Positions 9,260-47,612 of a stretch of DNA of 64,000 nt are shown here, piece by piece. Position 1 is the first letter of the stretch, and each line of letters opens with the position of its first letter. Both the position numbers and the translations under genes were made by a program. Source of the stretch: a virus. Lineage: Duplodnaviria; Caudoviricetes. The stretch lies in the IMG/VR virus record IMGVR_UViG_2889931527_000001, one strand, 5' to 3'. The notes below the pieces were generated by a model, which had not been told where the DNA came from, searched no databases, and saw only the letters and a program-made list of their open reading frames with translations.

Positions 9260-9331
9260 AAAGGCGCGGAACACACCAAATCATACTCAACTACTACTTA
9301 GCTAGTATGGTTTGGCGCGTTCCGCGCCGTA
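9260..9331 (-). promoter_or_regulatory. Class A leader attenuator (GGCGC-N5-GCGCC inside a terminator hairpin)
   Basis: ACGGCGCGGAACGCGCCAAA...TTTGGTGTGTTCCGCGCC plus U-tract, between promoter and antirepressor. Confidence 0.7.
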
Positions 9332-9436
9332 ATAATCATATTGGATTACACCCATTATATCATAAGTGGAGCATCCGGGGCAAGAAAAATTTATAAAATA
9401 TCGTGTGATGCAAATTCTTTGTGGATTGTCGTGGTA

Positions 9437-10477
9437 TTAGTCATTCAGGGCAACAACAGCAAAGAATCTTGAATCTATAATCCCTACCCCAATCGAATAT
9501 TGCCCATCTGTATAACATTCTATCGGGCCATTACCACCCTCAAAGTCGCCGACATAAATAAATCCGCATTTCAGTAAAAGGGAATGGTAATCAATTAAAA
9601 GGTTTTCATTCTGTGAAAGTGCGTCATCCAGATCGAGTACATCATAATAATATCCATCCAGACCGGCAAGTTTACCAATATCCGACTCTGGAATACCCGC
9701 AAACGCTCCAAAATCAGGAACACTTGGATATCGACTATAATAAGCTATATCCTCTGTTCCTGCACTCTCTCCCATATAAAAGAACGTATTGCCATCTGTT
9801 TGATAGGTGGAAATCATCACAGAAAACGTGCCTTCTGGAGAATACCCAAACGAAACATACAATCCGTCCTTTTTATACTGATCGACCTTTCCGACTTGAA
9901 CGACTCCCCATTTTGTATCAAAATCGAATTTATTTACAAACTGGAATCCAGCAGATTCCAACAACCTTCGATACGGTATGGTGCCAATGGTTCCGGAAGT
10001 ACCGTTGTAGACATACACCGTTGCACTTCCATCATTGGATGTCTTAATATCTTGTAATGTTGTATCATCTGGATAAAGCGTTGCAAAGTCAGGAACAGAG
10101 GGATAGTCTTTGTATCCAGAAAAATCACTTGTCTCATTTTGCGGGATATCGCTGGCTCCGTCACCTACTACAACCGCATTCTGGCTCTCATTCCACCCAA
10201 TTTCGACACCCAATGTTTCGGATAATTTACGTACAGGTAAATATACCGTCCACCCTCCATTTTCATCCTCATACGTAATACTTCCAGGAGCAGATGTTCC
10301 ATTTTGAAGTGTATAATTTTCTCCTTCTTTAGAAATTGTCTTGCCATCAGCTATTACATTCACTAAGTTTGGAGTCATTGAGCCTGTTACGGCAGCAAAT
10401 GCCGGGATTATTAGTCCGGATATAGCACATGAGCAAAAAATCCCCGCAAAAAAACTTTTTCTGTCAAAGTTTTTCAT
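9437..10477 (-). CDS. Secreted/cell-surface protein (signal peptide, copper-amine-oxidase-N-like stalk, two internal repeats)
   Basis: Signal ending PAFA; VYLPVRKLSETLGVEIGWN; YPSVPDF occurs twice. Confidence 0.75.
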   Translation of the reverse strand: MKNFDRKSFFAGIFCSCAISGLIIPAFAAVTGSMTPNLVNVIADGKTISKEGENYTLQNGTSAPGSITYEDENGGWTVYLPVRKLSETLGVEIGWNESQNAVVVGDGASDIPQNETSDFSGYKDYPSVPDFATLYPDDTTLQDIKTSNDGSATVYVYNGTSGTIGTIPYRRLLESAGFQFVNKFDFDTKWGVVQVGKVDQYKKDGLYVSFGYSPEGTFSVMISTYQTDGNTFFYMGESAGTEDIAYYSRYPSVPDFGAFAGIPESDIGKLAGLDGYYYDVLDLDDALSQNENLLIDYHSLLLKCGFIYVGDFEGGNGPIECYTDGQYSIGVGIIDSRFFAVVALND

Positions 10478-10677
10478 AATAATACCTCTTTCAAACCCTA
10501 ATTTCCTTGTAATGATTTACATGTATTTGATATACCTCCAATATCATATTTTTATTTTACCATATCAAGAATCTATTTCCAATACAAATACAAAGAAATA
10601 TTTTCTAAAAACACCTTGACTTTTTGTGCTCCAACAATTATACTGTATTTAGAGAGTGCAGAAAGTAGGTGATTAAA

Positions 10678-10851
10678 ATGAGCCCTCGCACAGGGCGTCC
10701 AAAAGCAGAAAATCCATTAAATGTAAATTTAAAGGTGCGTTTTGACCAAGAAACCAATAATCGATTGTTGGATTATTGCGAAAAGCATGGGGTTACACGC
10801 ACAGAAGCGATTCGTCGTGGGATACATTTGCTTTTGGAACAAGAAAAATAA
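10678..10851 (+). CDS. RHH/CopG-like small repressor
   Basis: MSPRTGRPK...LKVRFD...TRTEAIRRGIHLL. Confidence 0.8.
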   Translation: MSPRTGRPKAENPLNVNLKVRFDQETNNRLLDYCEKHGVTRTEAIRRGIHLLLEQEK

Positions 10852-10965
10852 GGTGTCGGCTCCCTGACAAAGAATACGACACCTTAGAACACCAATCCCG
10901 AAGGGATGGTAAATCTATTATACCATATCCTTCGGGGTTTACAAGACACCAGGAGGAAAAGCAAA

Positions 10966-11226
10966 ATGAAAAACAGACCCTTTCCAGAGATCATAAACGC
11001 GCACCATGCGGATGCACTAAGCCGAATGGAAGAAGATGCAGAACTGAATGCGTTGTACGAAGCGGAATGGTCGTTGCCGTGCGAAGATGTTCGCAGCATG
11101 CTAGATAGCGGCGACGTGAACGCGGCTTCTGATTTCATCGCAATGCACCAAGTCAAGACCGAGCGCATGGGATTCCTGCTGGGCTACCGCTACGCCATGC
11201 AGCTTGCACGGGAAATCTTTGTATAA
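10966..11226 (+). CDS. Conserved 86-aa phage protein (copy 1 of 3)
   Basis: AGGAGG RBS; near-identical to 23021-23281 and 37112-37372. Confidence 0.8.
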   Translation: MKNRPFPEIINAHHADALSRMEEDAELNALYEAEWSLPCEDVRSMLDSGDVNAASDFIAMHQVKTERMGFLLGYRYAMQLAREIFV

Positions 11227-11286
11227 TTCACACAAAGAATATACCCTTGACTTCGGCTGAAAAATCGCATATACTATGACCACACA

Positions 11287-11356
11287 AACGGCGCACTTCC
11301 GCGCCACTCATACAGTCAAACTGTATTGGTGGTCGGGGTGCGCCGTTTTTCGTTTT
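11287..11356 (+). promoter_or_regulatory. Class A leader attenuator after a TTGACT-17-TATACT promoter
   Basis: ACGGCGCACTTCCGCGCCA...TGGTCGGGGTGCGCCG-TTTTT. Confidence 0.7.
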
Positions 11357-11376
11357 CTCAGAAAGGAGCATGCTAT

Positions 11377-12132
11377 ATGAATGAATTGCAAATTTTCCAG
11401 AATGCAGAGTTTGGAACGATTCGAACAATCGAGGAAAACGGCAAAGTGCTGTTCTGCGGGTCGGATGTGGCTAAGGCATTGGGATATAAGAATCCTACAA
11501 AAGCCATTGCAGACCACTGCAAAGGAACTGTGGAGAGACGGGCTAACGATTCGTTAGGTCGTCAGCAGAATATGAAATTTATCACCGAAGGCGATATTTA
11601 CCGCTTGGGGGCAAAGTCTGAGTTACCGGGTGCAGATAAGTTTGAATGCTGGATTTTTGATGAAGTCCTCCCCTCTATCCGCAAGCATGGCGCATACATG
11701 ACACCTGAAACACTGGAAGCTGCAATCATGAATCCTGATACACTTATCAAGATTGCAACTGCGCTCAAGGATGAACAAGAGAAGCGCAAGGCATTGGAAA
11801 TCGCCAATTCCGAACTAACTGTTGACAACCAGATCATGAAACCCAAAGCGGACTATTTCGATGAAATCGTAGATAGGAACCTACTTACCAATTTCCGCGA
11901 AACGGCAAAGCAACTTAATGTGCCGCCGAGAAAGTTTGTAAGCTTCCTGATCGAAAAGAAATATGCCTATCGAGATAAGAAAGGTAAGCTCCAACCGTAC
12001 CAGCAGTATGTGGAAAGCGGCCTGTTCTGCCTGAAAGAGTGCTTGAATGAAAAGACCGGATGGGGAGGAACACAAACACTCATTACGCCGAAGGGACGTG
12101 AAACGTTTCGGCTGCTGTTTATTGCTGCGTAA
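11377..12132 (+). CDS. Phage antirepressor (Bro-N + KilAC)
   Basis: FQNAEFGTIRTIEENGKVLFCGSDVAKALGY...WIFDEVLPSIRKHG. Confidence 0.92.
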   Translation: MNELQIFQNAEFGTIRTIEENGKVLFCGSDVAKALGYKNPTKAIADHCKGTVERRANDSLGRQQNMKFITEGDIYRLGAKSELPGADKFECWIFDEVLPSIRKHGAYMTPETLEAAIMNPDTLIKIATALKDEQEKRKALEIANSELTVDNQIMKPKADYFDEIVDRNLLTNFRETAKQLNVPPRKFVSFLIEKKYAYRDKKGKLQPYQQYVESGLFCLKECLNEKTGWGGTQTLITPKGRETFRLLFIAA

Positions 12133-12199
12133 CCTATCATAGAATTTTAGCATTGAATATAGCCACTCAATATGCATTTTCTATGAAAGGAGCACAGAA

Positions 12200-12507
12200 A
12201 TGAATCAAACGTCTACGTTGCAAATTTTGAAGTCCGAAACATTTGGAACAGTAAAATGTGATTTCTATGGCGACGGAAATCAAGTATACATGACCCGAGA
12301 GCAAATCGGAACTGCTTTAGGATATTCCAACCCCAAACGCGCCATTTCAGATATTCACAAGAGACACAAGGAAAGACTGGACAAGTTCTCAAGGGTAACG
12401 CAGATTGCGTACCCCTCCGGTGGAAAACAAGATGTGTATATCTACAACAGAAAAGGCGTTATGGAAATCTGCCGATGGAGTCAACAGGAAAAAGCTGATG
12501 CTTTTAT
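12200..12507 (+). pseudogene. Bro-N antirepressor 5' fragment interrupted by an IS605-family end
   Basis: MTREQIGTALGY...GVMEICRWSQQEKADAF, then IS sequence after TTTAT. Confidence 0.8.
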
Positions 12508-12676
12508 CGAAGGCGGCGTAATACCCCTTGCTTCAGCTATGGGGATATAAGCCGCCTCAATGTGGTAGGGCGGGACACGCCCAAACCTATACGCTCGGGG
12601 AGATCGTGTAAGACCTGCTTGCAGGCAATGGTCGCTGAACTGAGAATCCCCTGCCTTTAGGCATGGGGAGTGTCAA
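12508..12676 (+). mobile_element. IS200/IS605-family miniature element (left end plus omegaRNA/right end, no ORF)
   Basis: Matches both ends of the tnpB element at 24559-25880; preceded by TTTAT, ends ...GGGGAGTGTCAA. Confidence 0.85.
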
Positions 12677-12733
12677 GTGTGGCTAAGGAAGCGCAAGAAC
12701 AGTGAAATGAGTATTGAGAAAGAGGGTTTTATT

Positions 12734-13657
12734 ATGCCTACAATTCAAGATTTCGAAAAAGGGATTCAAAAATATTTTCGGTCGTGCGCTTTTTTAGCTG
12801 ATTCATCCGTAACCCAACGTCGTCTTGTATGTGATAAACTGATCGAATATATGAGCGACAGAAAGAATGAGCAAATCACCGTCGAAACATTGATTGACTT
12901 CCGCAACAGCATGGATGAATTTAAGCCCAGCACGATAAACAAATATATGCGTATCCTAAAATCTATCTTCGCTTGGATGCTTGATATGGGTATATGGTAT
13001 GGAGGAAATCCGGTGAGAAAGAACATGGAAGTTCCTCAGCATCAGCACGAAATCAAGAATGTTCTGAACGATAACGATATGATGCGAATTGTCAGGAGAC
13101 GCGAAGATGCAGAAAAGAGTATTGTATACTTACGTAGACGTGCTATTACTCTGCTGCTTGTCACATCTGCCATGCGCGAATCTGAGTTGATCGAATTGCG
13201 TCCCATTGATTTAAACTGGGATAAAGGCACAATATATATTGCTAATGGTAAAGGCGGAAAAGATCGTACTGTGCTATTTTATAGTGTTGCGCAGGAAGCC
13301 GTAAAGGAATATATGAAGTTTCGTCCCGAATCTGCCACAGACCAAGATGCAGTATTCTTGGCAAATGATTGGAGAGGTGCACATAAGTTGGACCGGCGCA
13401 GCATCATTACGGATGTAAAAGAATACATTCGAAGCACAACAGGACGGACGGATATTTCTCCCCACTCGCTTCGTCATACTGCTGCTAGATATATGTTATC
13501 GAATGGTGTTCCAATGGCAGAGATTCAAGCACTGCTTGGACATTCTACAAGTGCAATCACAGAACATTATGCGAAGCTTCTCGCGCCCGATGTCACTCCG
13601 ATCAATTCAGCATCAACAGCGTTTGACAAAGTATATCCCCACGGAACATCTGTTTGA
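12734..13657 (+). CDS. Tyrosine recombinase (XerC/D-like)
   Basis: SAMRESEL, GKGGKDR, PHSLRH, LLGHSTSAITEHY catalytic set. Confidence 0.92.
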   Translation: MPTIQDFEKGIQKYFRSCAFLADSSVTQRRLVCDKLIEYMSDRKNEQITVETLIDFRNSMDEFKPSTINKYMRILKSIFAWMLDMGIWYGGNPVRKNMEVPQHQHEIKNVLNDNDMMRIVRRREDAEKSIVYLRRRAITLLLVTSAMRESELIELRPIDLNWDKGTIYIANGKGGKDRTVLFYSVAQEAVKEYMKFRPESATDQDAVFLANDWRGAHKLDRRSIITDVKEYIRSTTGRTDISPHSLRHTAARYMLSNGVPMAEIQALLGHSTSAITEHYAKLLAPDVTPINSASTAFDKVYPHGTSV

Positions 13658-21579: not shown

Positions 21580-21650
21580 AAAAAAAGGCCGCAACCTGCC
21601 CAATGCAGATTACAGCCCCAATCGACTTTCTTCTATCCCCAACCGGAAAG
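21580..21650 (-). terminator. Class B attenuator variant
   Basis: AGTCGATTGGGGCTGTAATCTGC...GCAGGTTGCGGCC-TTTTTTT. Confidence 0.6.
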
Positions 21651-21728: not shown

Positions 21729-21783
21729 CAATCATATTATTTTATATTATTATATCACACATAAACGGAAAATGCAAGAGCAA

Positions 21784-36039: not shown

Positions 36040-36202
36040 GCGTACCGCTTGCCGCTCTGGCGCATAGGCCCTGTTTCAAAAAACTCAGGGACAGGGCTTG
36101 GATTGGTGTTGTCTTTTTCCTGCCTACATGGTCCTTTTTACTCATTCCCATTTGAAATTTTCTTGCATCACCTACTTGACTTCATACCATTGGACTAAAA
36201 AA

Positions 36203-36280
36203 CAAAAAAGGGCTGCAAACCACATTTCTGTGATTTACAGCCCCGATTGGCTTTTACTTTCTACCGATTAAGAAAGCAAT
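36203..36280 (-). terminator. Class B attenuator
   Basis: Same ~43-bp core as at 29463 and 40381. Confidence 0.8.
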
Positions 36281-36289
36281 GTTCAGTTT

Positions 36290-37093: not shown

Positions 37094-37111
37094 AACGTTA
37101 CCTCCATTCTT

Positions 37112-37372
37112 TTACGCAAAAATTTCCCGTGCAAGCTGCATGGCGTAGCGGTAGCCCAGCAGGAACCCCATGCGCTCGGTCTTGACTTGGTGCATTGCGA
37201 TGAAGTCGGAAGCCGTGTTTACGTCGCCGCTATCTAGCATGCTGCGAACATCTTCGCACGGCAATGACCATTCTGCTTCATACAACGCATTCAGTTCCGC
37301 ATCTTCTTCCATCCGGCTTAGTGCATCCGCATGGTGCGCGTTTATGATCTCTGGAAAGGGTCTGTTTTTCAT
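37112..37372 (-). CDS. Conserved 86-aa phage protein (copy 3 of 3, inverted)
   Basis: Two substitutions relative to copies 1 and 2. Confidence 0.8.
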   Translation of the reverse strand: MKNRPFPEIINAHHADALSRMEEDAELNALYEAEWSLPCEDVRSMLDSGDVNTASDFIAMHQVKTERMGFLLGYRYAMQLAREIFA

Positions 37373-37482
37373 TTTGCTTTTCCTCCTTGATTTTCACCGG
37401 GAGGAATGATAGAATGGATTTACCATTCCTCCGGGTGTGGTGCTGTGAAGTAGTCCGCGATTTTCGACGGTGGCGGGCTACT

Positions 37483-37656
37483 TCACTTTTTTTGTCCCAA
37501 AACCAGTTCTAATCCTTCTCTGACAACATCTGTTCGACTTTTACCATATTTCTTACAATATGATTGTAGCCGTTTGTCCGTATCTTCATCGATTCGGGCT
37601 TTTACTTCGATGCTCTTTGGCTTCTCTGATTTTGGACGCCCTGTACGTGGCGACAT
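37483..37656 (-). CDS. RHH/CopG-like small repressor
   Basis: MSPRTGRPK...VKARID...SRTDVVREGL. Confidence 0.8.
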   Translation of the reverse strand: MSPRTGRPKSEKPKSIEVKARIDEDTDKRLQSYCKKYGKSRTDVVREGLELVLGQKK

Positions 37657-37731
37657 ATCATCACCCACTTTCTGTGCCACAGCAATATTGTGGTTTGTGT
37701 GGCTCAAAAAGTCAAGAGGAAAATGAAAAAT

Positions 37732-37875
37732 TTAACCTTTCGTTTTCGGTTCGTGGATGTATTCTAGTTTAATGGAATATACCTTTTCCTTTCCGTTTCT
37801 TTTGTCTTTTTTTATGAGCGCATCATTTCCTTGGTCAAGGACTTTGTCCACTGCTTCCATAGTGGCTTTTTGCAT
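37732..37875 (-). CDS. Small hypothetical protein
   Basis: GAGGTG RBS; MQKATMEAVDKVLDQGND. Confidence 0.5.
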   Translation of the reverse strand: MQKATMEAVDKVLDQGNDALIKKDKRNGKEKVYSIKLEYIHEPKTKG

Positions 37876-37899
37876 AGCTTCACCTCGATTGAAAAAACA

Positions 37900-37994
37900 A
37901 AAAAAGCGCAGCACATGCCAAAAAACGCAACCAAGCATATTATTCAGCATATCACTGAATAACACTTGTGTTTTTTGGCGCGTGCTGCGCCGCC
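37900..37994 (-). promoter_or_regulatory. Class A leader attenuator
   Basis: CGGCGCAGCACGCGCCAAA...TTTGGCATGTGCTGCGC-TTTTTTT after TTGACT...TATAAT. Confidence 0.7.
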
Positions 37995-38075
37995 GATATA
38001 ATTATATTATACTCTTTTATTCGGATAAGTCAATAGAAAAGAGGGAATATTTTTTAAATATTCCCTCTTTTTCAA

Positions 38076-39521
38076 TTAGCTCCCCGCCACAGTAACAGTC
38101 ACATTGTATGTAATCGATGTCTTGTTGCTTTCCGAAACGGTGAGTGTGAACGACTTGCTGCCACCAGCGGAAGAAACGCTTGTGGTGTTCACGGTATAGG
38201 TCGGGTTGGTTTCTGTGCCACCCGCAGAAACATCGCCGGAGTCGGTTCCTCCAATTTCAACGCTCTGTGCAGCGGTCTTGGTCGCGGTCAGAACGACGCT
38301 GGAAGTGGAGTTTTCAACATTTACTGTTACCGTCATGCTTGCTCCGCCGCCTTCAATCGTGTTGGAACCACCAGCAGACGGTGTAGTCAGCGCAAAGGTT
38401 ACATTTTCAGTCGGCGGAGTCGGTGCGCCGGTTACAGTGCATTGAACCGATGTGGTCAGATTGGCATTGTAGTTGGAAGTGATGTTCACCGTGCCCGTTC
38501 CGTTGGACAGACCGGTCACAACGCCGAGCGGCGAAACGCTGATATACTGCGTGCTGCCATCTGCAACCGCAAAGGTAAGGTTGCTCATAAGCGGAGTAAC
38601 CAGGGACCCATCCGGCATAACATACTTGACCGGGATTGTAGTTCCTTCATCATAGGCAACATCCAGTTCGTTTCCGCCTACAACCGCAAGACTTTCCACA
38701 AACTGATCGGGGTTGCCAAAAATTTCAACAACCATGTATGCCAGCTTCGGGGAAGCAGACGAACCACACTGAATACCAGCATCACACGCTTCGTTGTAAG
38801 AAAGTGCTGTGCCGGTCAGGTTGGTGGTTGCTGCCGTAGTCTGCGAACCTTCGGTCGAAACATCGCCATTGAACTGCATACGCGGTACAGTGATGTAGCA
38901 GTTACCGACATGCGAACCCTTGTTGCTTGCGCCCTGCCCTGCTTCGGTTGCATACAGCGGAATGGTATACAGCGAACGGACAACCGCCGGGGACATGAGG
39001 GTATCGACGCTCATTTGCATCGCATTTGCAGACTGAGTGTAGTAGTGCACGCAATAGGTTGTGCCTTCGGTTGCTGTGAAGCCTTGTACTTGCATAGACT
39101 CAACATCAATGAGATATGCCGTACTGTCATTGTTGATGGTACATACAATGTCACATCCGCCAAGCGGTGCACACGGAGTCTGTCCAACGGTCAGTGTAGT
39201 ACCAGTCGCAGCGACAGCTTCATCAACCGGCACAACGCCGTTATATGCAACCGTAGAACCAACAGACAGCGCGCGGCCTTGCAGAGAGAAGTCACCGGCA
39301 GTAATCGTCTGCGTCAGGGACGGAGTGTCGGGGATTTGGATAACAACCGGGTTGCCGATGCCTGCATTGATCGCACCCAGGTTCACAGTGGATTGGAGCT
39401 GGTTTGTAACGATCTTGTCCGAATAGAAGATAAGATCGTTTGTGGTTGGATCAAAGCACTTGAGGTACATTGTACCTTTTGCATAAACGGTCAAGCCGTT
39501 AATAGTACCAGAAACGTTCAT
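38076..39521 (-). CDS. Major tail tube protein with C-terminal Ig-like domains
   Basis: INAGIGNPVV motif; Big_2-like ISVSPLGVVTGLSNGTGTVNIT. Confidence 0.75.
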   Translation of the reverse strand: MNVSGTINGLTVYAKGTMYLKCFDPTTNDLIFYSDKIVTNQLQSTVNLGAINAGIGNPVVIQIPDTPSLTQTITAGDFSLQGRALSVGSTVAYNGVVPVDEAVAATGTTLTVGQTPCAPLGGCDIVCTINNDSTAYLIDVESMQVQGFTATEGTTYCVHYYTQSANAMQMSVDTLMSPAVVRSLYTIPLYATEAGQGASNKGSHVGNCYITVPRMQFNGDVSTEGSQTTAATTNLTGTALSYNEACDAGIQCGSSASPKLAYMVVEIFGNPDQFVESLAVVGGNELDVAYDEGTTIPVKYVMPDGSLVTPLMSNLTFAVADGSTQYISVSPLGVVTGLSNGTGTVNITSNYNANLTTSVQCTVTGAPTPPTENVTFALTTPSAGGSNTIEGGGASMTVTVNVENSTSSVVLTATKTAAQSVEIGGTDSGDVSAGGTETNPTYTVNTTSVSSAGGSKSFTLTVSESNKTSITYNVTVTVAGS

Positions 39522-39535
39522 TTGTGTCCTCCTTA

Positions 39536-40345
39536 TTAACGTTTTTCTACCGAACCCGAAAGCCTGCCCTGTAACGACTCAAAGCTTATCAGTGCATGGC
39601 TTCCCTCGTTTCGGTCATATTTCCACGATGGGAATGGATTGCCTTCCTTATATTTGCCGCCGTTTGCTTCTGTAAGCGCTGCAATCAAATGTCCTGTTGT
39701 GCGTGTTATCGCTTCTTCGGTTAGCGCGAACCGGCGCACTGTCCAGTCATAAATATCCTCTGGTTGCGCTCCGGTTTTGACAGCGACAGAATACAGTAGG
39801 GCTTCAAAGTCAGGTTTTAAATTTGGCGCGTTATGCGCCGCAATGTCTTTTTCTGCTTGAATGAGTTCGGGGTTGTCCGTTTCATCCGGCAGATCAATTC
39901 CATTTTGCGCAGCAAGGATAGTACGCAGTTGCCCGAAGTTCTTTGGGGTGATCTCTGCATTCACATCCCCTTGCTTCACTTTGATGGATGCCAATTTGCG
40001 CGGTTCGTCACGGCTAGTAGCAATGTACATTTCCACGTATTCTTTCCCGTCCTCTGATTTTTTAATAGGCAGCCGCATTGCCAGTCTCAAAAAAATCAAT
40101 AGGCGTAAAAACAATCCGCGTTCTTGCTCTCCGTTCATACGCGCGTCATAGTCCATGGCGTACAAGGCCTCAAGGAATCGCATGCAAACATATTTGACAG
40201 GGAGCGTTTGCTGCGCTACCATAAGCCCCATTTTTGCATCAGAGAATTGTAGATAGTCTGATACCAATATTGGATACAGGGTTAGGCCATTCCACATGAT
40301 TGGTTTCCCACGCTGGACGGCATCCTGTTGTTCCCGATTTAACAT
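39536..40345 (-). CDS. Tail assembly chaperone-like protein
   Basis: NFGQLRTILAAQN; IYDWTVRRF; adjacent to the tail tube gene. Confidence 0.6.
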   Translation of the reverse strand: MLNREQQDAVQRGKPIMWNGLTLYPILVSDYLQFSDAKMGLMVAQQTLPVKYVCMRFLEALYAMDYDARMNGEQERGLFLRLLIFLRLAMRLPIKKSEDGKEYVEMYIATSRDEPRKLASIKVKQGDVNAEITPKNFGQLRTILAAQNGIDLPDETDNPELIQAEKDIAAHNAPNLKPDFEALLYSVAVKTGAQPEDIYDWTVRRFALTEEAITRTTGHLIAALTEANGGKYKEGNPFPSWKYDRNEGSHALISFESLQGRLSGSVEKR

Positions 40346-40374
40346 CCTGTCCTCCGTTTTCCTCCTAAAAACAC

Positions 40375-40452
40375 AAAAAAGGGGCTGTAAACCACATTTC
40401 TGTGATTTACAGCCCCGATTGGCTATCGTCATCCTCCACTCTGGATGATGTA
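40375..40452 (-). terminator. Class B attenuator
   Basis: Same core, preceded by a CATCATCC/GGATGACG hairpin. Confidence 0.8.
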
Positions 40453-40457
40453 TTATA

Positions 40458-40913
40458 TTAAAAAATACACTTTGCAAGAGGTATATTTTTATTTTGTTTT
40501 AGTTTATCATAAATCGCTTTTGCAAGTTCTTTATAATATTTCATTTCTTGAATACTGTTTCCTGTCGCAACTTCATATAACTTGGTGCTAAAGTCATACA
40601 CCTTCTTTTCATCCAGAAGTTGCTTTAAAATTTGCGCAGTGGTTTTTCCGGCTCCTCTTATTTGGATAAAAAAATCTTTTTCAATGGGGAATTGCAAAGT
40701 ACCATTTCCCCATATATAGTTTAATTGCCAAGGATATAAAGTAAATCCAAGTTCTTTTTCCACTTCTCGCTTTTGCTCATCATATATATGCGCATCTGAA
40801 ATTTTGAATCCCAAAATCTCGTGCGCAATTACAGGAATCGGCATACTTACGCATTCTCTTGTTGCCTCTTTTATCATGTTTTCGATATATTCATATAAAA
40901 TTTCAACTTTCAT
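40458..40913 (-). CDS. Hypothetical phage protein with P-loop-like motif
   Basis: RGAGKTT; GGAGGTG RBS. Confidence 0.55.
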   Translation of the reverse strand: MKVEILYEYIENMIKEATRECVSMPIPVIAHEILGFKISDAHIYDEQKREVEKELGFTLYPWQLNYIWGNGTLQFPIEKDFFIQIRGAGKTTAQILKQLLDEKKVYDFSTKLYEVATGNSIQEMKYYKELAKAIYDKLKQNKNIPLAKCIF

Positions 40914-41091
40914 CTTTTCACCTCCGATATAGAAAGCACATGCCATCCATCTCGCTGGCATCTCAGACGCGCAGATGTTTCTGTTTCTGCATCTATTCGT
41001 AACTTGCACGTTTCACCAATATCATTTTCCAGATTTACTTCAAAGCATTTTTTTACCACATTCTTCTTAATCATTTTTTTACCTTTCTTCA

Positions 41092-41166
41092 TGGCTGGGA
41101 TAGCTGGATTCGAACCAGCGCATGCGGGAGTCAAAGTCCCGTGCCTTACCGCTTGGCTATACCCCA
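41092..41166 (-). tRNA. tRNA-Gln(TTG)
   Basis: Full cloverleaf, loop CT-TTG-AC, CCA end. Confidence 0.92.
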
Positions 41167-41170
41167 ATAT

Positions 41171-41458
41171 TTATTGTTCTTTCGGCTCGTTCGCTGCTTT
41201 CTTAATTTGAGCATTGAAGCGAAATCTTGGAATTTTCTTGGCTGGAACCATGATCGGAACATTTTTATATACATTTTGTCTGATTCTTTCCTTAGTTTGT
41301 GCCACTTCAAAAACTCCAAAATCTGCAATATGTACTTTTTCACCGTTAAATATTGTTTCAACAATGCACTTGCATACACTGTCTACAATATTCTCGATTG
41401 CATAGGCCGATGCACCTGTCTGCTCAGATACCTTTTTACATAGTTCTTTTTTGTTCAT
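41171..41458 (-). CDS. HU/IHF-family DNA-binding protein
   Basis: MNKKEL...GEKVHIADFGVFEV...VPAKKIPRF. Confidence 0.88.
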   Translation of the reverse strand: MNKKELCKKVSEQTGASAYAIENIVDSVCKCIVETIFNGEKVHIADFGVFEVAQTKERIRQNVYKNVPIMVPAKKIPRFRFNAQIKKAANEPKEQ

Positions 41459-41486
41459 ATTGGATCACACTCATAAATCAATCTGC

Positions 41487-41705
41487 TCATTCAAAATCGT
41501 AATGCTCAAAAATCCATTTTAGCGCAGAAACAAGTTCATCTTTCGACACGCTGTTGTGCGTTGCCATATTTGCAACATTGTCAATCGCTAAAATCCTTGT
41601 TTGGAACGGAATTGTTTCATCGTTCAGTTTATCTTTTACAATGTCGATTGCCATTCCGTCGGATACATTGAATGTGGGGAACGCAATCGTTTTACGCTTT
41701 TCCAT
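41487..41705 (-). CDS. Hypothetical phage protein
   Basis: ORF in the minus-strand operon. Confidence 0.5.
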   Translation of the reverse strand: MEKRKTIAFPTFNVSDGMAIDIVKDKLNDETIPFQTRILAIDNVANMATHNSVSKDELVSALKWIFEHYDFE

Positions 41706-41768
41706 TGTCTTTCATTCCTCAATGTTGTGCGAGATTTTATGCAGTTCAGGTAGTAGTCAGTTCATGTA

Positions 41769-42119
41769 TTACATTCCCATTTTTGCGCCACACTCAGGGC
41801 AAAACTTATGAGAAAAATAATATTCTTGGAAAACTTTTTTGCAATGAGAACATTGCGGCTTTCCTCTAAAATCTTTCCATTCTGCACAAACAACGGGAAA
41901 TATTGTTTTATCTTCTGTAAACTCAAATTCTTCTTTTAGCCATTCCAGAACGAAATCAAGTTCATAAGAACCAAACCCAATATCAAAATCGTTTTTTCCT
42001 TCGTTATACCAAAGAATTTCAAAGTATGTACCGATTTTGTTTTCTGTTGCAATGACTTGTGCATATCTTGTCATTATTTTTTTCTTTTCTTGCAGTTTTG
42101 GAGTTGCAAGTTCTGCCAT
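41769..42119 (-). CDS. Hypothetical protein with C-terminal zinc ribbon
   Basis: CSHC...FCPECGAKM. Confidence 0.6.
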   Translation of the reverse strand: MAELATPKLQEKKKIMTRYAQVIATENKIGTYFEILWYNEGKNDFDIGFGSYELDFVLEWLKEEFEFTEDKTIFPVVCAEWKDFRGKPQCSHCKKVFQEYYFSHKFCPECGAKMGM

Positions 42120-42454
42120 TGTTTTACCCCCGCTCCGTCTAAATCACATCATATAAATTTAGAATGGTTCAAGTTTATACCGCTTTTTGATTCTAAGTCT
42201 AATATTGTTTATGCAGTATGTAACCGTAATTCCGGATACTTTCATGTTTTCTACCTGCACTTCCATAAACAATAAAAAATAGAAAAGATGCAACCTGCTG
42301 CAAGACATGCCATCACCAATGCCAGCGAAATCATCATAACCATACCTGTAACATCAATAATCGTTTCAAACATTCCTCTATCAATCCTCATTCCCATATT
42401 ATCGGCTGCTATAATTTGCACTAATTTTAGACCTTCGCCTTACAAATCATATTT

Positions 42455-42975
42455 GCCACCATATTCAGCCAGCGAGTGAATAAGTCTGAGCATGCAACCC
42501 GTCGATCACACACTTCTTACCCAAGCGGCAAGCCGCCTAATCTCGTGCGGGATTGTCACCCGCAGCCCTTACACATCATTCAGAAATTGAAACATAATTC
42601 TTGTTTTATTTCTGCCTTGTGCCGGGTACGCAACGCCATGTTATACCCTTATTTCTAAGGTTCACGGCAAACATGGTTATTGGATTCCCTAGGTTTGAAC
42701 GGTTTTCCACGCCGTCCCTAACTAGGGTTATTCTCCCACAGGAAGCGTCTATTATCCATGCCACAGCGTTGCTGCTTTTGATGTCGATATAATTCGCACA
42801 CATAGTACATAGTTGGCGCTCTCACGCCTTCTGAATCGGTATCGCTATCGGTTCAAAGTTTTCACCAAAAGTATCCCTCTGGCTTCCACTCCATGAATTA
42901 CCCCATGTTCTCGGCAGGGTGATTATTCCTTCTTCACCGAGTTAAAATCAGCGCAAATTATAACAGTCGATCTTA
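42455..42975 (-). ncRNA. Large structured ncRNA candidate, ROOL-like
   Basis: ~520 nt with no credible ORF directly downstream of a tRNA; many short helices; 3' end GCTCAGAC...CTGAATATG resembles my recollection of ROOL (unverified). Confidence 0.5.
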
Positions 42976-42978
42976 AAT

Positions 42979-43054
42979 TGGTGGTTCCCCACGGATTCGA
43001 ACCGTGCCCGGGCGGTTATGAGCCACCTGTTCTCGCCTAGTGAACTATGGAACC
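42979..43054 (-). tRNA. tRNA with CAT anticodon (Met or Ile2)
   Basis: Loop CT-CAT-AA, T-loop TTCGAAT, CCA end. Confidence 0.8.
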
Positions 43055-43111
43055 AGATATGCGCCATCCGGTGTCAGATCGCGTGTTCCGTCACGGATTT
43101 GGCGCATCTAT

Positions 43112-43171
43112 TCGGGAGTGGTCGGAGTCGAACCGACAAGACACGCGATTTATCTTTGGCCGTATCTCCCA
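43112..43171 (-). ncRNA. Truncated tRNA-like RNA (acceptor stem and T arm, no proper anticodon arm)
   Basis: GGGAG/CTCCC stem; GTCGG-TTCGACT-CCGAC. Confidence 0.5.
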
Positions 43172-43298
43172 TGGTTGCGCGAGTTGGATTCGAACCAACA
43201 CAGGAAACTGCATTTCAACGTCTATCCGGCTTGGCGTTGAGCAGAAACCTTCTTCTACGTTTAACCACGCAAGCTTCTCCCAATTCGGCTATCGCGCA
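43172..43298 (-). ncRNA. tRNA-like RNA with abnormal anticodon loop and ~50-nt variable arm
   Basis: TGCGCGA/TCGCGCA-ACCA; GTTGG-TTCGAAT-CCAAC. Confidence 0.65.
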
Positions 43299-43303
43299 AT
43301 ATA

Positions 43304-43379
43304 TGGCATGAGCATGAGGAATCGAACCTCACCACGCGGTTTTGGAGACCGCATCGCCAGCCTTGGAACATGTGCTCCT
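43304..43379 (-). tRNA. tRNA-Trp(CCA)
   Basis: GCGGT-CTCCAAA-ACCGC; CCA end; one acceptor mismatch. Confidence 0.8.
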
Positions 43380-43384
43380 ATATA

Positions 43385-43815
43385 CCCCTTGCGGGGTATG
43401 CGTGATTTACGCCCACCAGCGCCCCGGCTTAACGGGGTTCTCAGCTTCCACGAAATTGAAAAACAGTCGATTATCAGTCATGCTGTTTTCGGTTTCCGAC
43501 CCTTTTTGGTCGGTACTTGGTGTCGCCACTCAGGATGCTAGGCGACGCGTGCAGGCCGTAATACGTTATCATCCATTCGCATTCGTGCCTTAAATCCCTT
43601 ACGGGAGATTGAGTAGCAGAACGGTAAATTTGTTGTGGATAGGCGGTTGCTCATTCCGCCTAGTGTCCTAACTTTGACCTTCCGTGGTTTGTGGGTCTCA
43701 AAAATCGCCGTTTACCCACTCATTCGCCACGTTCGAAATTCTGACGGCTCTATCGGTTTTTATCCGCCCGGCTTTCACGGGTAGTTCGTCAACTAGCTCC
43801 GCCGTGTACTTTGGC
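43385..43815 (-). ncRNA. Unassigned ~430-nt structured RNA candidate
   Basis: Lies between tRNAs; hairpins such as GGCGG/CCGCC, GTCGC/GCGAC, CCGACC/GGTCGG, TACCCC-GCAA-GGGGTA. Confidence 0.45.
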
Positions 43816-43818
43816 GGA

Positions 43819-43895
43819 TGGTGCCATTGACTGGACTTGAACCAGTGACATACGGTCATTTACGCCGATTGCTCTACCTACTGAGCTACAATGAC
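43819..43895 (-). tRNA. tRNA-like gene with enlarged, undeterminable anticodon loop
   Basis: Canonical D (AGCTCAGTAGGTAGAGC) and T arms, CCA end; loop CGTAAATGA. Confidence 0.65.
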
Positions 43896-43957
43896 ATGTG
43901 TGGGGAGTCAACATTACTCGACTCCCCGTCCGGCATCCACCGGACCTCTCTGTTATA

Positions 43958-44149
43958 TGCGGGTGATGATTTGCACATCACATGGTTGATACTGCCCGTG
44001 GATTTGCTAGACCCCATCAGGGTACGGGAGCGTACTTTCATCGAACCTTCCGTTTAAGCGTCTACTTTTGCAACCACGCCATTTGTGTGTGTTCAGGCCA
44101 TTCGGTTGCTTTACATCGCCACACACTAACGCTCTATTCCGCCACCGCA
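43958..44149 (-). ncRNA. tRNA-elbow-like RNA motif, copy 1
   Basis: TGCGG-TGGCGGAATAG...AGTAGACGCTT...TGATG-TGCAAAT-CATCA-C-CCGCA. Confidence 0.6.
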
Positions 44150-44152
44150 TAT

Positions 44153-44226
44153 TGGAGCACGAAACGGGAGTCGAACCCGCGTTCCCGGCTTGGAAGGCCG
44201 GTGTACTACCGCTGTACGATTCGTGC
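44153..44226 (-). tRNA. tRNA-Gly(TCC)
   Basis: CCGGC-CTTCCAA-GCCGG; TCCA end. Confidence 0.9.
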
Positions 44227-44583
44227 ATGTGCCGGTCTTTCCCGGCTGTCATCCGTTTTTCGGGAACGGCATTCCATATTCATTCACAAAAACTGTATGC
44301 AGCAAAAATCAAACGGTGTTCAAATAACCCTGATCTCTAATCCTGTTCACGGATTACCTCCTTACAAAACTTTAGAATGAATCTTCTGGCGAAATGCGAA
44401 TTTGTCGTATCTGGCAAATACGCGCTGGCCCGCCGCAGCCGACTTACATCTTCATATCTTTTGCGTCACAAACAAACTGACTACATCGTTTCATTTTTCT
44501 CACCTTTCTTTCCCGGACTTTTATCCGTAAAACCTATCGCCGCGTCCTCATGCAGACTAAGCGATCATATTTATTCACGTATT

Positions 44584-44838
44584 TCACGCAGGCTCGTATG
44601 TCTTTTGAAATATATCCGGTTTGCATGGATAAAATTCTCGATTTACACCCTTAATGATATAGTCTCCCACACTTGCATGAAGGTTCCCTTCTAGTGTATG
44701 AATCACTAAACCTACTTTCGGTATGATTTCAAACGATTCCGGGTCAATAAATTCGCATATTTCTGCATGGTTTGACCCATTCCATTGAACTGCATCAATT
44801 ACAACAGGTTTCTTGCGATATTTCATATCAATCTCCAT
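44584..44838 (-). CDS. Conserved small phage protein
   Basis: KYRKKPVVIDAVQW...GDYIIKGV..EFYPCKPDIF..TYE. Confidence 0.8.
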   Translation of the reverse strand: MEIDMKYRKKPVVIDAVQWNGSNHAEICEFIDPESFEIIPKVGLVIHTLEGNLHASVGDYIIKGVNREFYPCKPDIFQKTYEPA

Positions 44839-44902
44839 TTCATTTTACAATCAATACTGGATTGTAAATCATTTGATCGAACATTGTGCTACGCTGACAT
44901 GA

Positions 44903-45262
44903 TTACTTTTGCAAATCGTATAAGCTACCTACTATTTCAATGTTTTCCCATGCGTAAAACCTGCCATCGTACCTACTTAAATGAATTGATTTGTTCAATC
45001 TTTGTTTCATCCATTCATCAGCCTTTTTAGTAAGAGAAATTTCTCCTGGAAGCAATTGGATAATGTTGTAGCAGTCTGTTTCTTCTGGTGAAATACATTC
45101 TGTGCTATGTTGCTGTTTATAAACAATAACATAGCCAATTGGTCTTTTTAACAATATTGCTTGTCCATCCCAAATTTCTTTTCCAACTACACCTTCGGCA
45201 ATGATATCGCCTTCTCGTAACGTTATACCATGAATATCTTTTCTTGGTATCGCTTCTCTCAT
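44903..45262 (-). CDS. YopX-like protein (putative)
   Basis: KDIHGITLREGDII...IEIVGSLYD. Confidence 0.55.
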   Translation of the reverse strand: MREAIPRKDIHGITLREGDIIAEGVVGKEIWDGQAILLKRPIGYVIVYKQQHSTECISPEETDCYNIIQLLPGEISLTKKADEWMKQRLNKSIHLSRYDGRFYAWENIEIVGSLYDLQK

Positions 45263-45623
45263 TTCCTCACCTCTTACATTTTTAATACAATAAAAAGGAT
45301 GATATTACAATCTACAACCTGTTCACATTTTTGCTACTTAACGCCTAGACGCACATTATTTTTGTCAGCTTATATGCTATTAGCTGAACTTTCCCGTGTT
45401 GGTCTGCGTTGCCACACACAAACTCTGCTTCCACACCTCACATACTTTGCAATCAGGAATCACCCTTTTCATCACGGTACTTTTCAACCTCGCGCATGTG
45501 CATATGTCGCAACCGTTATCCCATTCGGTTGAGGTTAACCCATATAATTTTCAACGTGCCGCTTTCGCACAGCGCACACGCAAGACCCGTTCGCGGTGTT
45601 TTTCGCCTGTGGTATCATACATC

Positions 45624-45699
45624 TGGAGCCAATGGTGGGACTCGAACCCACGACCTGATGATTACAAATCACCTGCTCTGCCATCTGAGCTACACGGGC
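45624..45699 (-). tRNA. tRNA-Thr(TGT)
   Basis: Loop TT-TGT-AA; CCA end; one acceptor mismatch. Confidence 0.85.
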
Positions 45700-45705
45700 A
45701 TATTA

Positions 45706-45876
45706 TGCGGCCAAGGATTTGCACCCTGGATGGATGTTTTTACTTATCCAAGCCGTCTTGTGTCCTTAAAAGGTTACACATCCTCCGGTCAAGCGTCTAC
45801 TATTACCGTTCAGGCTGTCGCCCGTCTGGTTTTACCGTCCCACGCGGTACGTAGGCCGTCTATTTCCGCCACCGCA
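45706..45876 (-). ncRNA. tRNA-elbow-like RNA motif, copy 2
   Basis: TGCGG-TGGCGGAAATAG...AGTAGACGCTT...CAGGG-TGCAAAT-CCTTG-G-CCGCA. Confidence 0.6.
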
Positions 45877-45979
45877 CAAATTCTGTGTGTATTCCGTCTT
45901 TCAGCCGTTCCAATGGGACGATAGCGCACACAATCGCATCCGGCATCTGATGATTTTTTATCACCTCTATACAGAGCCG

Positions 45980-46840
45980 CTATCGTCTAACTCAACCGCA
46001 TAGCGACATATTTAGTGGCGGATAAGTTTAACCTCAGAACGCTTCTCTCACCAGCATTCCTATCTACTCTACATCGAGTAGACCCCAACTTCCAAAGGGT
46101 GCACATTATATACTCTACCACCGACAGGTCAGCACTTACCCATCTATCACTATATCGTGTGACTACTACGCCAAACAATCAGCAGCTTTTTTATATCTCA
46201 TGTTGGCGATCAACCCAAGCGAGAATGGAGCCACGCATACCTGACCGTTTGGTTATAAGCGTTAGACAAGCTGTGTACACTATTTGGATATGTTTCCATG
46301 CCTTTAACACTTGTCCCACGGAATTTTACCGTGCCATCATACACTCATTTTTGGCTGAGCAACCTTAAATGGCATGACCATTATATGAATCGAACCTCGC
46401 TTTTGGATAGGTCACTTCTGCCAGCCTGCTAACCATCTTCTACTCCTGTCGGCATCGAACTTCTCTTACTCGGTGCCAGATCAGGGGAGCAGGTTCACCA
46501 AAGGCAGTCTTTTCATCTTCTTTCGCTGCAAATACACAGACTCCATCGTTACAGTTATCCTCAGTATATCTGCATACCGTATATAAACGGCATACAAGGG
46601 CTGTGCTGTGTTAAGGACGTTCCTTTCTGTTTATAGCCTTGGCCTTCGGCATCAGAACATTTACAGCTTCATCTACATTTACACGGGCTTGGAACCGTTA
46701 TCCCAATATAGAGGGTGTTGCGAAAACATACATCGTCATATACCAGGATAGCTGTATTAAATTAGGTATTTACTGATGCTCCCATCGCTTGGAAGCTTCC
46801 CTCCATCCGCGTTCCTTGGCGTATTCTATACCCTCAATAC
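45980..46840 (-). ncRNA. Giant ncRNA candidate (~860 nt), GOLLD-like by size and context
   Basis: No credible ORF; starts right after tRNA-Gly in a prophage tRNA operon; 5' TTAGGTATT pairs with AATACCTAA. Confidence 0.5.
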
Positions 46841-46845
46841 CTAAA

Positions 46846-46919
46846 TGGAGCCAATGACGAGAATCGAACTCGCGCACTCAGATTGGAAATCTGATGTTCT
46901 ACCATTAAACTACATTGGC
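46846..46919 (-). tRNA. tRNA-Gly(TCC), second divergent copy
   Basis: TCAGA-TTTCCAA-TCTGA; TCCA end. Confidence 0.9.
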
Positions 46920-46990
46920 ATATTGCCGTCTCTTCCAGCTGTCACCACGGGTTTTCATCGTGTCCGACACAAAGTATCGAGCCGCTATCC

Positions 46991-47078
46991 TGGCGGAGCA
47001 GGAGGGATTCGAACCCTCGCACGTTCATCACGCCTCACAGTTTTCAAGACTGCTCCCTTACCACTTGGGTACCACTCC
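46991..47078 (-). tRNA. tRNA-Ser(TGA)
   Basis: Loop CT-TGA-AA, long variable arm, GCCA end. Confidence 0.9.
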
Positions 47079-47082
47079 TTAT

Positions 47083-47175
47083 TGCAGCGTGCAGGATTCG
47101 AACCCGCGATGCCCAGTCTCCACACGAAAAAATCCGGCGATCAACCAAGAGTCTTGCCCGCTTGACCAACGCTGC
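47083..47175 (-). ncRNA. tRNA-like RNA with expanded, ambiguous anticodon arm and no encoded CCA
   Basis: GCAGCGT/ACGCTGC; GTC...GAC D arm; GCGGG-TTCGAAT-CCTGC. Confidence 0.6.
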
Positions 47176-47262
47176 GTGTTCCTCCCCGCGTCTGCGGGGA
47201 GGGTATGGGTATGATAAGGAAAGGAGATATTTTGTCGCAGAAACTAGCGACAGGCTTGAATA

Positions 47263-47333
47263 TGGATTGCGCCATTAGAGAATCGAACTCCACATCGCAA
47301 CTATACGTTACATGTTTGCCATACATTGGCGCA
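47263..47333 (-). ncRNA. Degenerate tRNA-like RNA
   Basis: TGCGCCA/TGGCGCA stem; TTCGATT T-loop; 5-nt anticodon-position loop. Confidence 0.5.
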
Positions 47334-47489
47334 TATTCCTCCCCGGCTGCTGGGGAGGTGAAAGATAGGGAAAAGAGAAAGAAAAAGAGGTAGGAAATTC
47401 TGTCCCCGCTTTTGGGGTACGGGGAATTGCCTGAACCACATGGCAGCATGTATCCATGTAGCCCAAGCGTGTATGGTTGCGCCATACAG

Positions 47490-47612
47490 AAAAAAGACGG
47501 CGCAATCCCCACCAAATCACACTACGAGTACATTACACACGTACTTAGTGCGGTTTGGCGCGGATTGCGCCGTCTGTAACTGTATTATATTCCTTCTTCT
47601 GGCGAAAGTCAA
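47490..47612 (-). promoter_or_regulatory. Sigma70 promoter and class A attenuator heading the tRNA/ncRNA operon
   Basis: TTGACT(47612-47607)-17-TATAAT(47589-47584); ACGGCGCAATCCGCGCCAAA...GGATTGCGCCGT-CTTTTTT. Confidence 0.8.

Follow-up and report, generated by a model that had tools for sequence, protein, structure and literature searches.

Six promoter-proximal, terminator-like leaders of a prophage share one palindrome and look like lineage-specific control of anti-repressor, tail, and tRNA/ROOL operons

Results

The 64,000-nucleotide (nt) stretch of phage DNA analyzed here, referred to throughout as the window, is IMG/VR record IMGVR_UViG_2889931527_000001 (Duplodnaviria; Caudoviricetes) and corresponds to C4:514615-578614 of a 3.28-Mb genome. 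It carries six promoter-adjacent leaders, e1 to e6, each of which opens with the same short palindrome and forms a long hairpin that ends in a U-tract. We call these class A leaders. An initial annotation had described six promoter-adjacent long terminators sharing a GGCGC/GCGCC element, and reading, folding, and motif counts all confirmed them. Every site has the same layout: a sigma70-type promoter, the palindrome, a variable upper stem-loop, a 3′ arm, and a run of U4 to U7. The palindrome (15-16 bases; consensus C-GGCGC-R-N3/4-C-GCGCC-A) opens each 5′ arm 12-25 nt past the -10 hexamer, and the 3′ arm pairs back to its first G.

The genes behind the leaders are those originally claimed, namely anti-repressors, a tail operon, and a tRNA/noncoding RNA operon. 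Bro-N/KilAC anti-repressor genes follow e1, e2, e4, and e5. On the minus strand, e1 (leader 9258-9329, hairpin 9263-9328, palindrome 9314-9328, U5) lies behind a promoter at 9354-9383 (TTGCCC-N18-TATAAT, with a TG extension) and ahead of the Bro-N/KilAC gene 8461-9243. On the plus strand, the e2 promoter at 11247-11275 (TTGACT-N17-TATACT) is followed by leader 11288-11351 (hairpin 11288-11346, palindrome with an N6 spacer at 11290-11305, U5) and then by the Bro-N/KilAC gene 11377-12129. The e4 site, also on the plus strand, is nearly identical, with a duplicate of the e2 promoter at 23302-23330, leader 23343-23406, hairpin 23343-23401, palindrome 23345-23360, and Bro-N/KilAC gene 23431-24180. 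Because e2 and e4 sit in a duplication (12 kb apart, 91-99% identity), the six leaders amount to five independent copies. The e5 promoter (38006-38033, minus strand; TTGACT-N16-TATAAT, 11 of 12 matches) drives leader 37898-37992 (hairpin 37905-37991, palindrome 37977-37991, U7), behind which come a 47-amino-acid (aa) open reading frame (ORF), a ribbon-helix-helix (RHH) repressor gene, an 86-aa ORF, and the Bro-N/KilAC gene 36293-37093.

The two other leaders, both on the minus strand, head different operons. The e3 leader (21657-21725, hairpin 21661-21724, palindrome 21710-21724, U4) is followed by a second terminator, unrelated to the class A element, at 21586-21618, and then by the gene of an 800-aa protein and a tail-protein operon (21560-13685). 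Its promoter at 21749-21777 (TTGCAT-N17-TATAAT, with a TG extension) was called by eye and falls under the scanner's -35 cut-off. The e6 leader (47489-47575, hairpin 47495-47575, palindrome 47557-47571, U6) lies behind a promoter at 47584-47612 (TTGACT-N17-TATAAT, 11 of 12 matches) and heads operon 47175-41092, which holds nine tRNAs and a ROOL RNA. In the promoter scan, e2, e4, e5, and e6 thus share the pattern TTGACT-N16/17-TATAAT or TATACT; e1 and e3 have TTGCCC or TTGCAT with an extended TGnTATAAT. These last two sites also share the sequence AATATGATT between the -10 hexamer and the hairpin (9335-9346 and 21731-21742, minus strand), within which a second -10-like hexamer, TATGAT, lies ~8-13 nt into the transcript; it may be a sigma-dependent pause element, or chance.

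Each site folds as one unbranched hairpin of 26-36 bp with its U4-U7 tract behind. The folding energies are -46.3 kcal/mol for e1 (z -9.7), -41.9 for e2 (z -8.7), -42.2 for e3 (z -7.5), -41.5 for e4 (z -10.1), -49.4 for e5 (z -6.2), and -57.8 for e6 (z -9.6), and at none of the six sites did any of 200 shuffles fold as well as the native sequence. The base of the stem, GGCGC:GCGCC (GGCGC:GCGCU in e5), stands directly before the U-tract, so all six have the sequence signature of an intrinsic terminator.

The stems covary. The alignment, fitted to the model, had six distinct rows (e1, e3, e5, e6, and the metagenome variants of e1 and e3), which are paralogues and one close relative; 96.5% of its cells are paired, both bases have changed in 7 of the 24 pairs, and none of 500 shuffles reached the observed covariation score. 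When partners are slid by 1-3 columns, pairing falls to 32-53%. The spacers within the palindrome differ (GGAAC, AGCAC, AAUCC, ACUUCC), and in every case the 3′ arm of that copy has the matching sequence. Moreover, the forward strand folds 4-9 kcal/mol better than its reverse complement owing to G·U pairs, and the covariance model, R1, gives 74-89 bits forward vs 40-56 bits reverse, although it misses e2 and e4 unless its filters are off. Together, the matching of spacer and 3′ arm and the G·U-driven strand specificity indicate that the long terminator is a selected, strand-specific RNA structure.

Such a hairpin could be functional in itself, as an RNase III or other processing site or a 5′ stabilizer of the downstream message, with the conserved G·U pair and mismatch of the middle helix serving as the recognition feature, or it could be the target of an antisense RNA, as in the immunity systems of P4 or P1 (c4). 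The helices of 26-36 bp do share an imperfection, located where the proximal GCGCC has its first G (G·U, G-A, G-G, or a C-A neighbor), and in e2, e5, and e6 the predicted 5′ end lies 2-6 nt before the hairpin. However, a U-tract directly behind a G+C stem points to termination, a further copy of the palindrome described below has no 3′ arm, the Rfam families C4, isrK, and c4-a1b1 go unmatched even at E ≤ 5, and no RNA elsewhere in the window is complementary over more than 8-9 nt. We therefore regard this explanation as very improbable. Regulation by a trans antisense RNA was dropped, the only complementary matches being of 8-9 nt and at chance level.

The same 5′ arm can also form a second, smaller fold. 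The palindrome by itself makes a GGCGC...GCGCC mini-hairpin worth -8.3 to -9.5 kcal/mol, which in four of the five copies is the minimum-energy fold until 9-13 nt before the 3′ end of the stem and yields only once transcription has added the UUUGGUG segment of the 3′ arm. In e3 there is a brief flip back to the mini-hairpin, and the fold settles 6 nt short of the stem's 3′ end. Since the 5′ half of the mini-hairpin is also the partner in the terminator base, the two folds are mutually exclusive, which bears out the exclusion originally proposed. The completed terminator beats the mini-hairpin by ~17-23 kcal/mol, so termination should be the default state. In five distinct copies, the two G's of the proximal GCGCC face 10 positions of the 3′ arm in all, of which only 2 are C (6 are U, 1 is A, and 1 is G). 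This scarcity of C weakens the competing helix and prevents the 3′ arm from containing the palindrome. Thus the 3′ arms appear systematically to avoid rebuilding the palindrome, and the middle helix looks deliberately weak.

The palindrome is far more frequent in the window than chance would give. GGCGC-N4-7-GCGCC occurs 7 times vs 0.21 expected, a number reached by none of 100 shuffles, and the extended consensus CGGCGCRNNNCGCGCCA occurs 5 times vs 0.04 expected. No copy of the palindrome with one mismatch exists in the window. A script counted 192 palindrome matches on both strands of the whole 3.28-Mb genome; judged by the script and by inspection of its results, the six window sites are alone in having a promoter followed by a U-tract hairpin with the motif paired at its base. 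Although upper stems and spacers differ widely, 15 positions are identical in all copies.

The seventh copy, CGGCGCATAACGCGCCAAA (CGGCGCATAACGCGCCA, then AA), lies at 39824-39840 on the minus strand, in sense orientation within ORF 39536-40477, with neither terminator nor promoter. It is the only one of the seven in which the palindrome's first G is not the first base of a terminator stem. There it codes for Ala-Ala-His-Asn-Ala-Pro. Given the phage's own codon usage, in which GCG makes up 22% of Ala codons, synonymous choice would produce the motif at this place with a probability of ~0.005. A homologue from IMG/VR phages, 30-32% identical, reads NSQNMP at this position, and in a related metagenome phage the copy is intact with differing bases on both flanks. 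The seventh copy thus appears to be kept by codon choice, and, standing alone, it shows the palindrome to be an independent unit. The ORF as listed has 313 aa and spans a terminator of another class (class B, below) at 40381-40416; translation probably begins at the Met in position 45, for a protein of ~269 aa with those 30-32% identical IMG/VR phage homologues.

An invariant palindrome of this kind would also be expected of a double-stranded DNA site for a dimeric protein, which could act by repressing the promoter or, in the manner of Q or AlpA, by being loaded on polymerase to carry it past the terminator; the long hairpin would then be a strong constitutive terminator built over the site, and the seventh copy an auxiliary operator. 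We consider this less likely than not but nearly as likely as the RNA-based reading that we prefer (Discussion), and much of the pattern is what it predicts. All seven copies have identical half-sites around a free spacer, the classical signature of an operator, and the copies are all-or-none, with zero one-mismatch versions. Half-site centers lie 10-11 bp apart, just past the start site, and the distance from the -10 hexamer to the palindrome is 12, 14, or 14 nt (e6, e5, e2) or 24 or 25 nt (e3, e1), two groups about one helical turn apart. The 3′ arms avoid a second full site. Intragenic auxiliary sites are common for phage repressors, and the stand-alone copy resembles their distal operators. 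DNA-binding proteins are encoded nearby: three RHH paralogues, an HU-like protein, and Bro-N domains.

Other features are less easily explained by a DNA site. The palindrome's first base is the stem base in all six leaders, and spacer and 3′ arm covary; neither follows unless the whole cassette was inherited as a unit. In e2 and e4 the spacer has 6 bp, against 5 bp in the five others. The palindrome's two flanks are unlike each other, with C to its left and A or AAA to its right, and in 7 of 7 copies they follow the direction of transcription. No gene of the Q or AlpA families was found in the window. The RHH proteins, whose Arc/Mnt type would fit the 10-11 bp between half-site centers, differ from one another in the strands that read DNA (IEVKARI, LQYRLRL, VNLKVRF), and one has a likely operator of its own: GGATATCC lies on both sides of the -10 of the RHH-module promoter 22667-22695, with 5 matches vs 0.84 expected. 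Both points make it less likely that the palindrome is read by the RHH proteins of the modules.

It is also conceivable that there is no dedicated switch, the leaders being constitutive leaky attenuators or insulators, or sources of stable 65-95-nt hairpin RNAs, that resemble one another through common descent, gene conversion, and the need for a G+C-rich base. Stem bases rich in G+C are generic for terminators. In addition, e2 and e4 are plain duplicates, e1 and e3 share the extended -10 and AATATGATT, the element is limited to one phage lineage, and the hairpins of e1-e4 are also the first terminator past the upstream gene. Against this, the upper stems and spacers have diverged while 15 positions stayed fixed, any G-C stem would give stability and yet a single sequence is used, and the seventh copy, which has no terminator, is maintained against codon preference. 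On balance we think this explanation unlikely.

The search for relatives covered the host genome, related genomes, and phage and metagenome collections. Outside the phage, the class A element was not found elsewhere in the 3.28-Mb genome. In Rfam 15, none of the 9 gathering-level matches or the 23 matches at E ≤ 5 overlaps the six sites or the seventh copy, in line with the earlier failure to place the element in a named family. The covariance-model search that the initial annotation had proposed supported the strand-specific fold and found no relatives among 100 related genomes, where R1 under stricter filters gave only a 30.5-bit, 43-nt match (G077). In IMG/VR, the pattern CGGCGC-N5/6-GCGCCAAA occurs in at least 113 stretches, of which a script flagged 9; among the matches listed, none has a promoter together with a long continuous hairpin. 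A 21-base pattern that includes TTTGGTG hit 4 IMG/VR stretches and, across 185,579 GTDB species genomes, 80 genome-contig stretches, all chance-like and mostly in G+C-rich DNA (8 matches were read individually; a script flagged 9 of 83 loci, none convincing). In metagenome contigs the same pattern gave 84 stretches, of which 3 are real (L327, L338, and L358, on two contigs of one assembly).

Searches that started from the genes gave the same picture. At the IMG/VR loci of Ant (anti-repressor) relatives (38) and portal relatives (69; at most 53% identity), the architecture was seen in 0 of 74 palindrome matches, and the upstream regions of 23 Ant loci, when read, held no such leader. An R1 match after a portal gene was rejected as an ordinary 46-nt terminator. 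Twelve of the 69 portal loci were also scanned without regard to the motif, which gave 3 long hairpins, none with a -35/-10-like promoter upstream or a palindrome in its 5′ arm.

The metagenome relative is 88-98% identical to the window and holds e1, one copy of the e2/e4 type, e3, e5, e6, and the seventh site. Its palindromes are unchanged and its lower stems nearly all identical, the exception being one pair of e3, which is G·U in the window and G-C in the relative; the upper stem of e1 and the flanking sequences differ. The sequencing runs that contain the region are chicken-gut metagenomes plus a coded "organism A": 17 runs hold at least half of the sampled words, and 20 entries from 9 studies hold any part. 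As far as these collections reach, the element occurs in a single narrow lineage of phages, seen in chicken-gut metagenomes. A literature search, with supplementary files outside its scope, found no description of this element.

Even within the phage, the term "phage-wide" used at first was too broad. Equal-scoring promoters at 1801-1773, 22667-22695, and 10616-10644 lack the element, and the prophage extends leftward beyond the window for at least 15 kb more, a stretch that lacks the palindrome. That left flank (L420, G000:C4:494615-514614) encodes Dam, a DUF4942 methyltransferase, DUF6378, and RepL. In the right part of the window (48302-51365 and 53899-63329) lie a Mob_Pre relaxase, a DUF5906 primase-like protein, and a DnaG zinc ribbon, and then a type I restriction-modification system.

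Three of the anti-repressor genes belong to modules that resemble P22 immI, at 10616-12550 (+), 22667-24601 (+), and 38033-36293 (-). Each runs in the order Arc-like RHH protein (57-60 aa; genes 10678-10851, 22722-22904, and 37486-37656), acidic orphan 86-aa ORF, and Bro-N/KilAC anti-repressor (Ant), and the RHH paralogues match phrog_876 (E 1e-16). The GGATATCC pair is the likely operator of the RHH module in which it lies. In two of the three modules the class A leader stands between the 86-aa ORF and ant, where it would also stop transcripts from the RHH promoter. Two of the three also encode a 116-aa protein with Bro-N only. The duplicated module is ~2 kb long (10541-12550 vs 22591-24601), and its copies flank the integrase gene and the e3 tail operon; downstream of one lies the integrase gene (12677-13654) and downstream of the other a TnpB gene (24643-25752). 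The metagenome relative has a single copy of this module. It also lacks an IS110-family transposase insertion at 34487-36195 (34487 joins 36195), which one run-X9 DNA contig skips as well, with 34485 joined to 36195.

The initial annotation had named the 86-aa protein as a candidate for the factor that acts on the leaders. With 8 K+R against 15 D+E it is acidic and thus a poor candidate for binding nucleic acid, and among 5.8 billion proteins it matches only its own 90% cluster (36 members), so we dropped it. Two further ideas were set aside: an RNA anti-CRISPR mimic, since a crude finder detected no CRISPR array in the genome, and T-box or tRNA-acceptor mimicry, since Rfam gave no T-box match and the leaders are too short.

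The operon behind e6 includes the ROOL RNA (42410-42965, minus strand; 339 bits), and among its tRNAs lie genes for an HU-like DNA-binding protein (41174-41458, minus strand; phrog_379, E 4e-19) and for a 116-aa protein with a C-terminal CxxC-N14-CxxC zinc ribbon (41772-42119, minus strand). Another zinc-ribbon protein is encoded at 21787-22563; together with the 47-aa ORF product, the HU-like and Bro-N proteins, and, more weakly, the RHH proteins, these two are candidates for the factor. Metatranscriptome contigs from three RNA-labeled runs match ROOL exactly over 42433-42941 (~505 nt), with a depth of 106 in run X18; the RNA label of run X20 is a guess. RNA contigs also match other parts of the e6 operon and, at depth 2-6, the RHH and Ant genes behind e5. 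Many parts of 28001-48000 are uncovered, and the contigs show neither ends nor levels. They show that read-through products of the e6 and e5 operons exist somewhere in the sampled communities, with DNA carry-over a possible source.

The phage has a second class of terminator repeat. Class B is a near-identical 36-nt hairpin, GGGGCTGTAAATCACAGAAATGTGGTTTRCAGCCCY, followed by U6, at 29463-29498, 36209-36244, and 40381-40416 on the minus strand; the terminator directly behind e3 at 21586-21618 (minus strand) is a diverged variant. These repeats sit between structural genes and after the e5 operon, and run-X9 DNA contigs break there. As ordinary terminators on the same strand, they make some form of antitermination plausible for the phage. 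One of the class B terminators is overlapped at its 5′ edge by a sub-threshold match to the Rfam gut-2 RNA (36233-36280, minus strand; E 0.0012, with 34.9 bits vs 39.8 for gathering).

Discussion

Our analysis describes an element that is real, well defined, and restricted to one lineage. It looks like lineage-specific on/off control of anti-repressor, tail, and tRNA/ROOL operons. In our preferred reading, which we put forward tentatively as a possibility, the leaders are terminators that would normally hold their operons off and let transcription through once a factor has clamped the 5′ mini-hairpin of the nascent transcript. The six elements would form one paralogous family of promoter-proximal intrinsic terminators, or attenuators, that by default keep shut four anti-repressor operons, the tail/receptor-binding operon, and the tRNA/ROOL operon. 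The palindrome, located from 2 to ~17 nt from the transcript's 5′ end, would emerge and fold first, as a mini-hairpin of 5-6 bp of G-C. Its 5′ half (GGCGC plus the spacer) is predicted also to pair with the last 10 nt before the U-tract. With no factor bound, the 3′ arm would displace the mini-hairpin, the helix would zip up to the U-tract, and polymerase would release a 65-95-nt RNA. We infer a sequence-specific factor, phage-encoded or induced, that holds the mini-hairpin closed; the bottom 10 bp of the terminator would then be blocked and the upper hairpin would lie at least 18 nt from the U-tract, leading to read-through. The seventh copy, in the structural operon, could serve as an extra loading or binding site, which would fit a processive version of the N/nut kind.

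It is useful to compare this arrangement with known systems. As in lambda N/nut, a 15-nt hairpin with a 5-bp stem and a loop of ~5 nt appears early in several phage transcripts, before terminators, and there are several copies per genome, one far from a promoter, with more terminators downstream (here those of class B). The lambda N protein, an arginine-rich peptide, reads the boxB loop, a GNRA-like pentaloop. In contrast, the loops here are unconserved (GAA, AGCAC, AAUCC, ACUUCC, AUAAC), and the hairpin is nested in the terminator's own 5′ arm. No boxA-like element was identified, nor any N-like protein among the small translated ORFs, a survey that used no N-family profile. The ribonucleic antiterminator (RAT) targets of BglG, SacY, and LicT offer a closer parallel in one respect, because there too a small 5′ hairpin overlaps the 5′ arm of a terminator, and stabilization by a protein would block termination. 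A RAT, however, is an imperfect hairpin of ~29 nt recognized through its bulges and loop, whereas the mini-hairpin here lies wholly inside the terminator arm; the three CAT_RBD matches in the genome (C6:370828, C4:1107132, and C4:740187) are chromosomal, and none is in the window. ANTAR targets consist of two tandem hairpins with hexanucleotide loops. Here there is a single hairpin with a 3-6-nt loop, and both ANTAR genes of the genome are far from the window.

The P22 immI (arc-ant) region and the leaders of P1, P4, and IsrK likewise have anti-repressors with their own promoter and a short terminated leader, and Arc-like RHH genes accompany three modules here. Unlike in P1, P4, and IsrK, no C4, isrK, or sar-type RNA was found (Rfam, E ≤ 5), and the same element also heads the tail and tRNA/ROOL operons. 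Q and AlpA systems are reported to combine a constitutive promoter and an immediate terminator with a promoter-side DNA site that loads the antiterminator (PMC7969949). The succession of promoter and terminator is alike; in contrast, a perfect palindrome lies here inside the transcribed hairpin, and there are six units rather than one late promoter. The families Phage_antitermQ, Antiterm, and Phage_AlpA gave no match in the window (elsewhere, PF06530 was sub-threshold, PF03589 absent, and PF05930 present only on C10 and at C4:1017778). A LoaP-type NusG paralogue was not found either, the single NusG match in the genome being at C4:865173.

Two further systems show a related logic. The zipper-type attenuator of pLS20-family conjugation operons has a 456-nt leader in which lengthening of a long central stem is opposed by a weak stem-loop upstream of it. 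There the lengthened stem acts as the antiterminator, and termination takes place at a different hairpin farther downstream (PMC13401043). The competition is similar here and the logic inverse, since the extended stem is the terminator-like fold, and the leaders measure 65-95 nt. Gram-positive mobile elements use terminator/antiterminator pairs, and Tn916 canT is a cis-acting RNA antiterminator; unlike the terminator-like class A hairpin, canT is not itself a terminator (PMC11658703). Overall, the element resembles known promoter-proximal terminator/antiterminator schemes and appears to belong to none of the antiterminator systems compared here.

Several points weigh against an RNA clamp. The stem is invariant in all seven copies and the loop free in both sequence and length (3, 5, or 6 nt), whereas the protein-bound RNA hairpins of boxB, RAT, and ANTAR conserve loops or bulges while their stems covary. 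The mini-hairpin offers no scorable covariation. Profile matches place no NusG paralogue, CAT_RBD, ANTAR, Q, or AlpA gene in the window, and no trans RNA with extended complementarity is encoded there, beyond the chance-level matches already mentioned. Branch migration through a 5-bp hairpin is fast, and sequence alone predicts no read-through. Finally, all counts come from five independent copies and one close relative, and shared descent inflates every one of them. The original proposal of a coordinated antitermination regulon therefore holds in part: the covarying, terminator-like structures behind promoters support it, and the combination of invariant stem and free loop is typical of a DNA operator.

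A bolder version would be a regulon of the N/nut kind, in which one factor reads a 15-nt hairpin through the sequence of its stem, both in the terminators' 5′ arms and in the free-standing copy, and so switches anti-repressors, tail genes, and tRNA/ROOL together in a phage of the gut Firmicute type. This would be a new mode of recognition and possibly a new family of antiterminators; we regard it as doubtful.

To our knowledge, hardly any work has addressed how temperate phages of gut anaerobes are regulated. The narrow distribution of the element, in one lineage, limits its generality. It nonetheless offers a compact test case, a 65-95-nt leader with six natural variants, both for asking whether the palindrome is read as RNA or as DNA and for fishing out the factor. 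The element is also a handle on the timing of ROOL RNA production. Anti-repressors are possible triggers of induction, or of the cross-induction of other prophages. A single cis signal ties four of their genes to the receptor-binding/tail operon and to the ROOL/tRNA promoter, and one switch may decide on all of them together.

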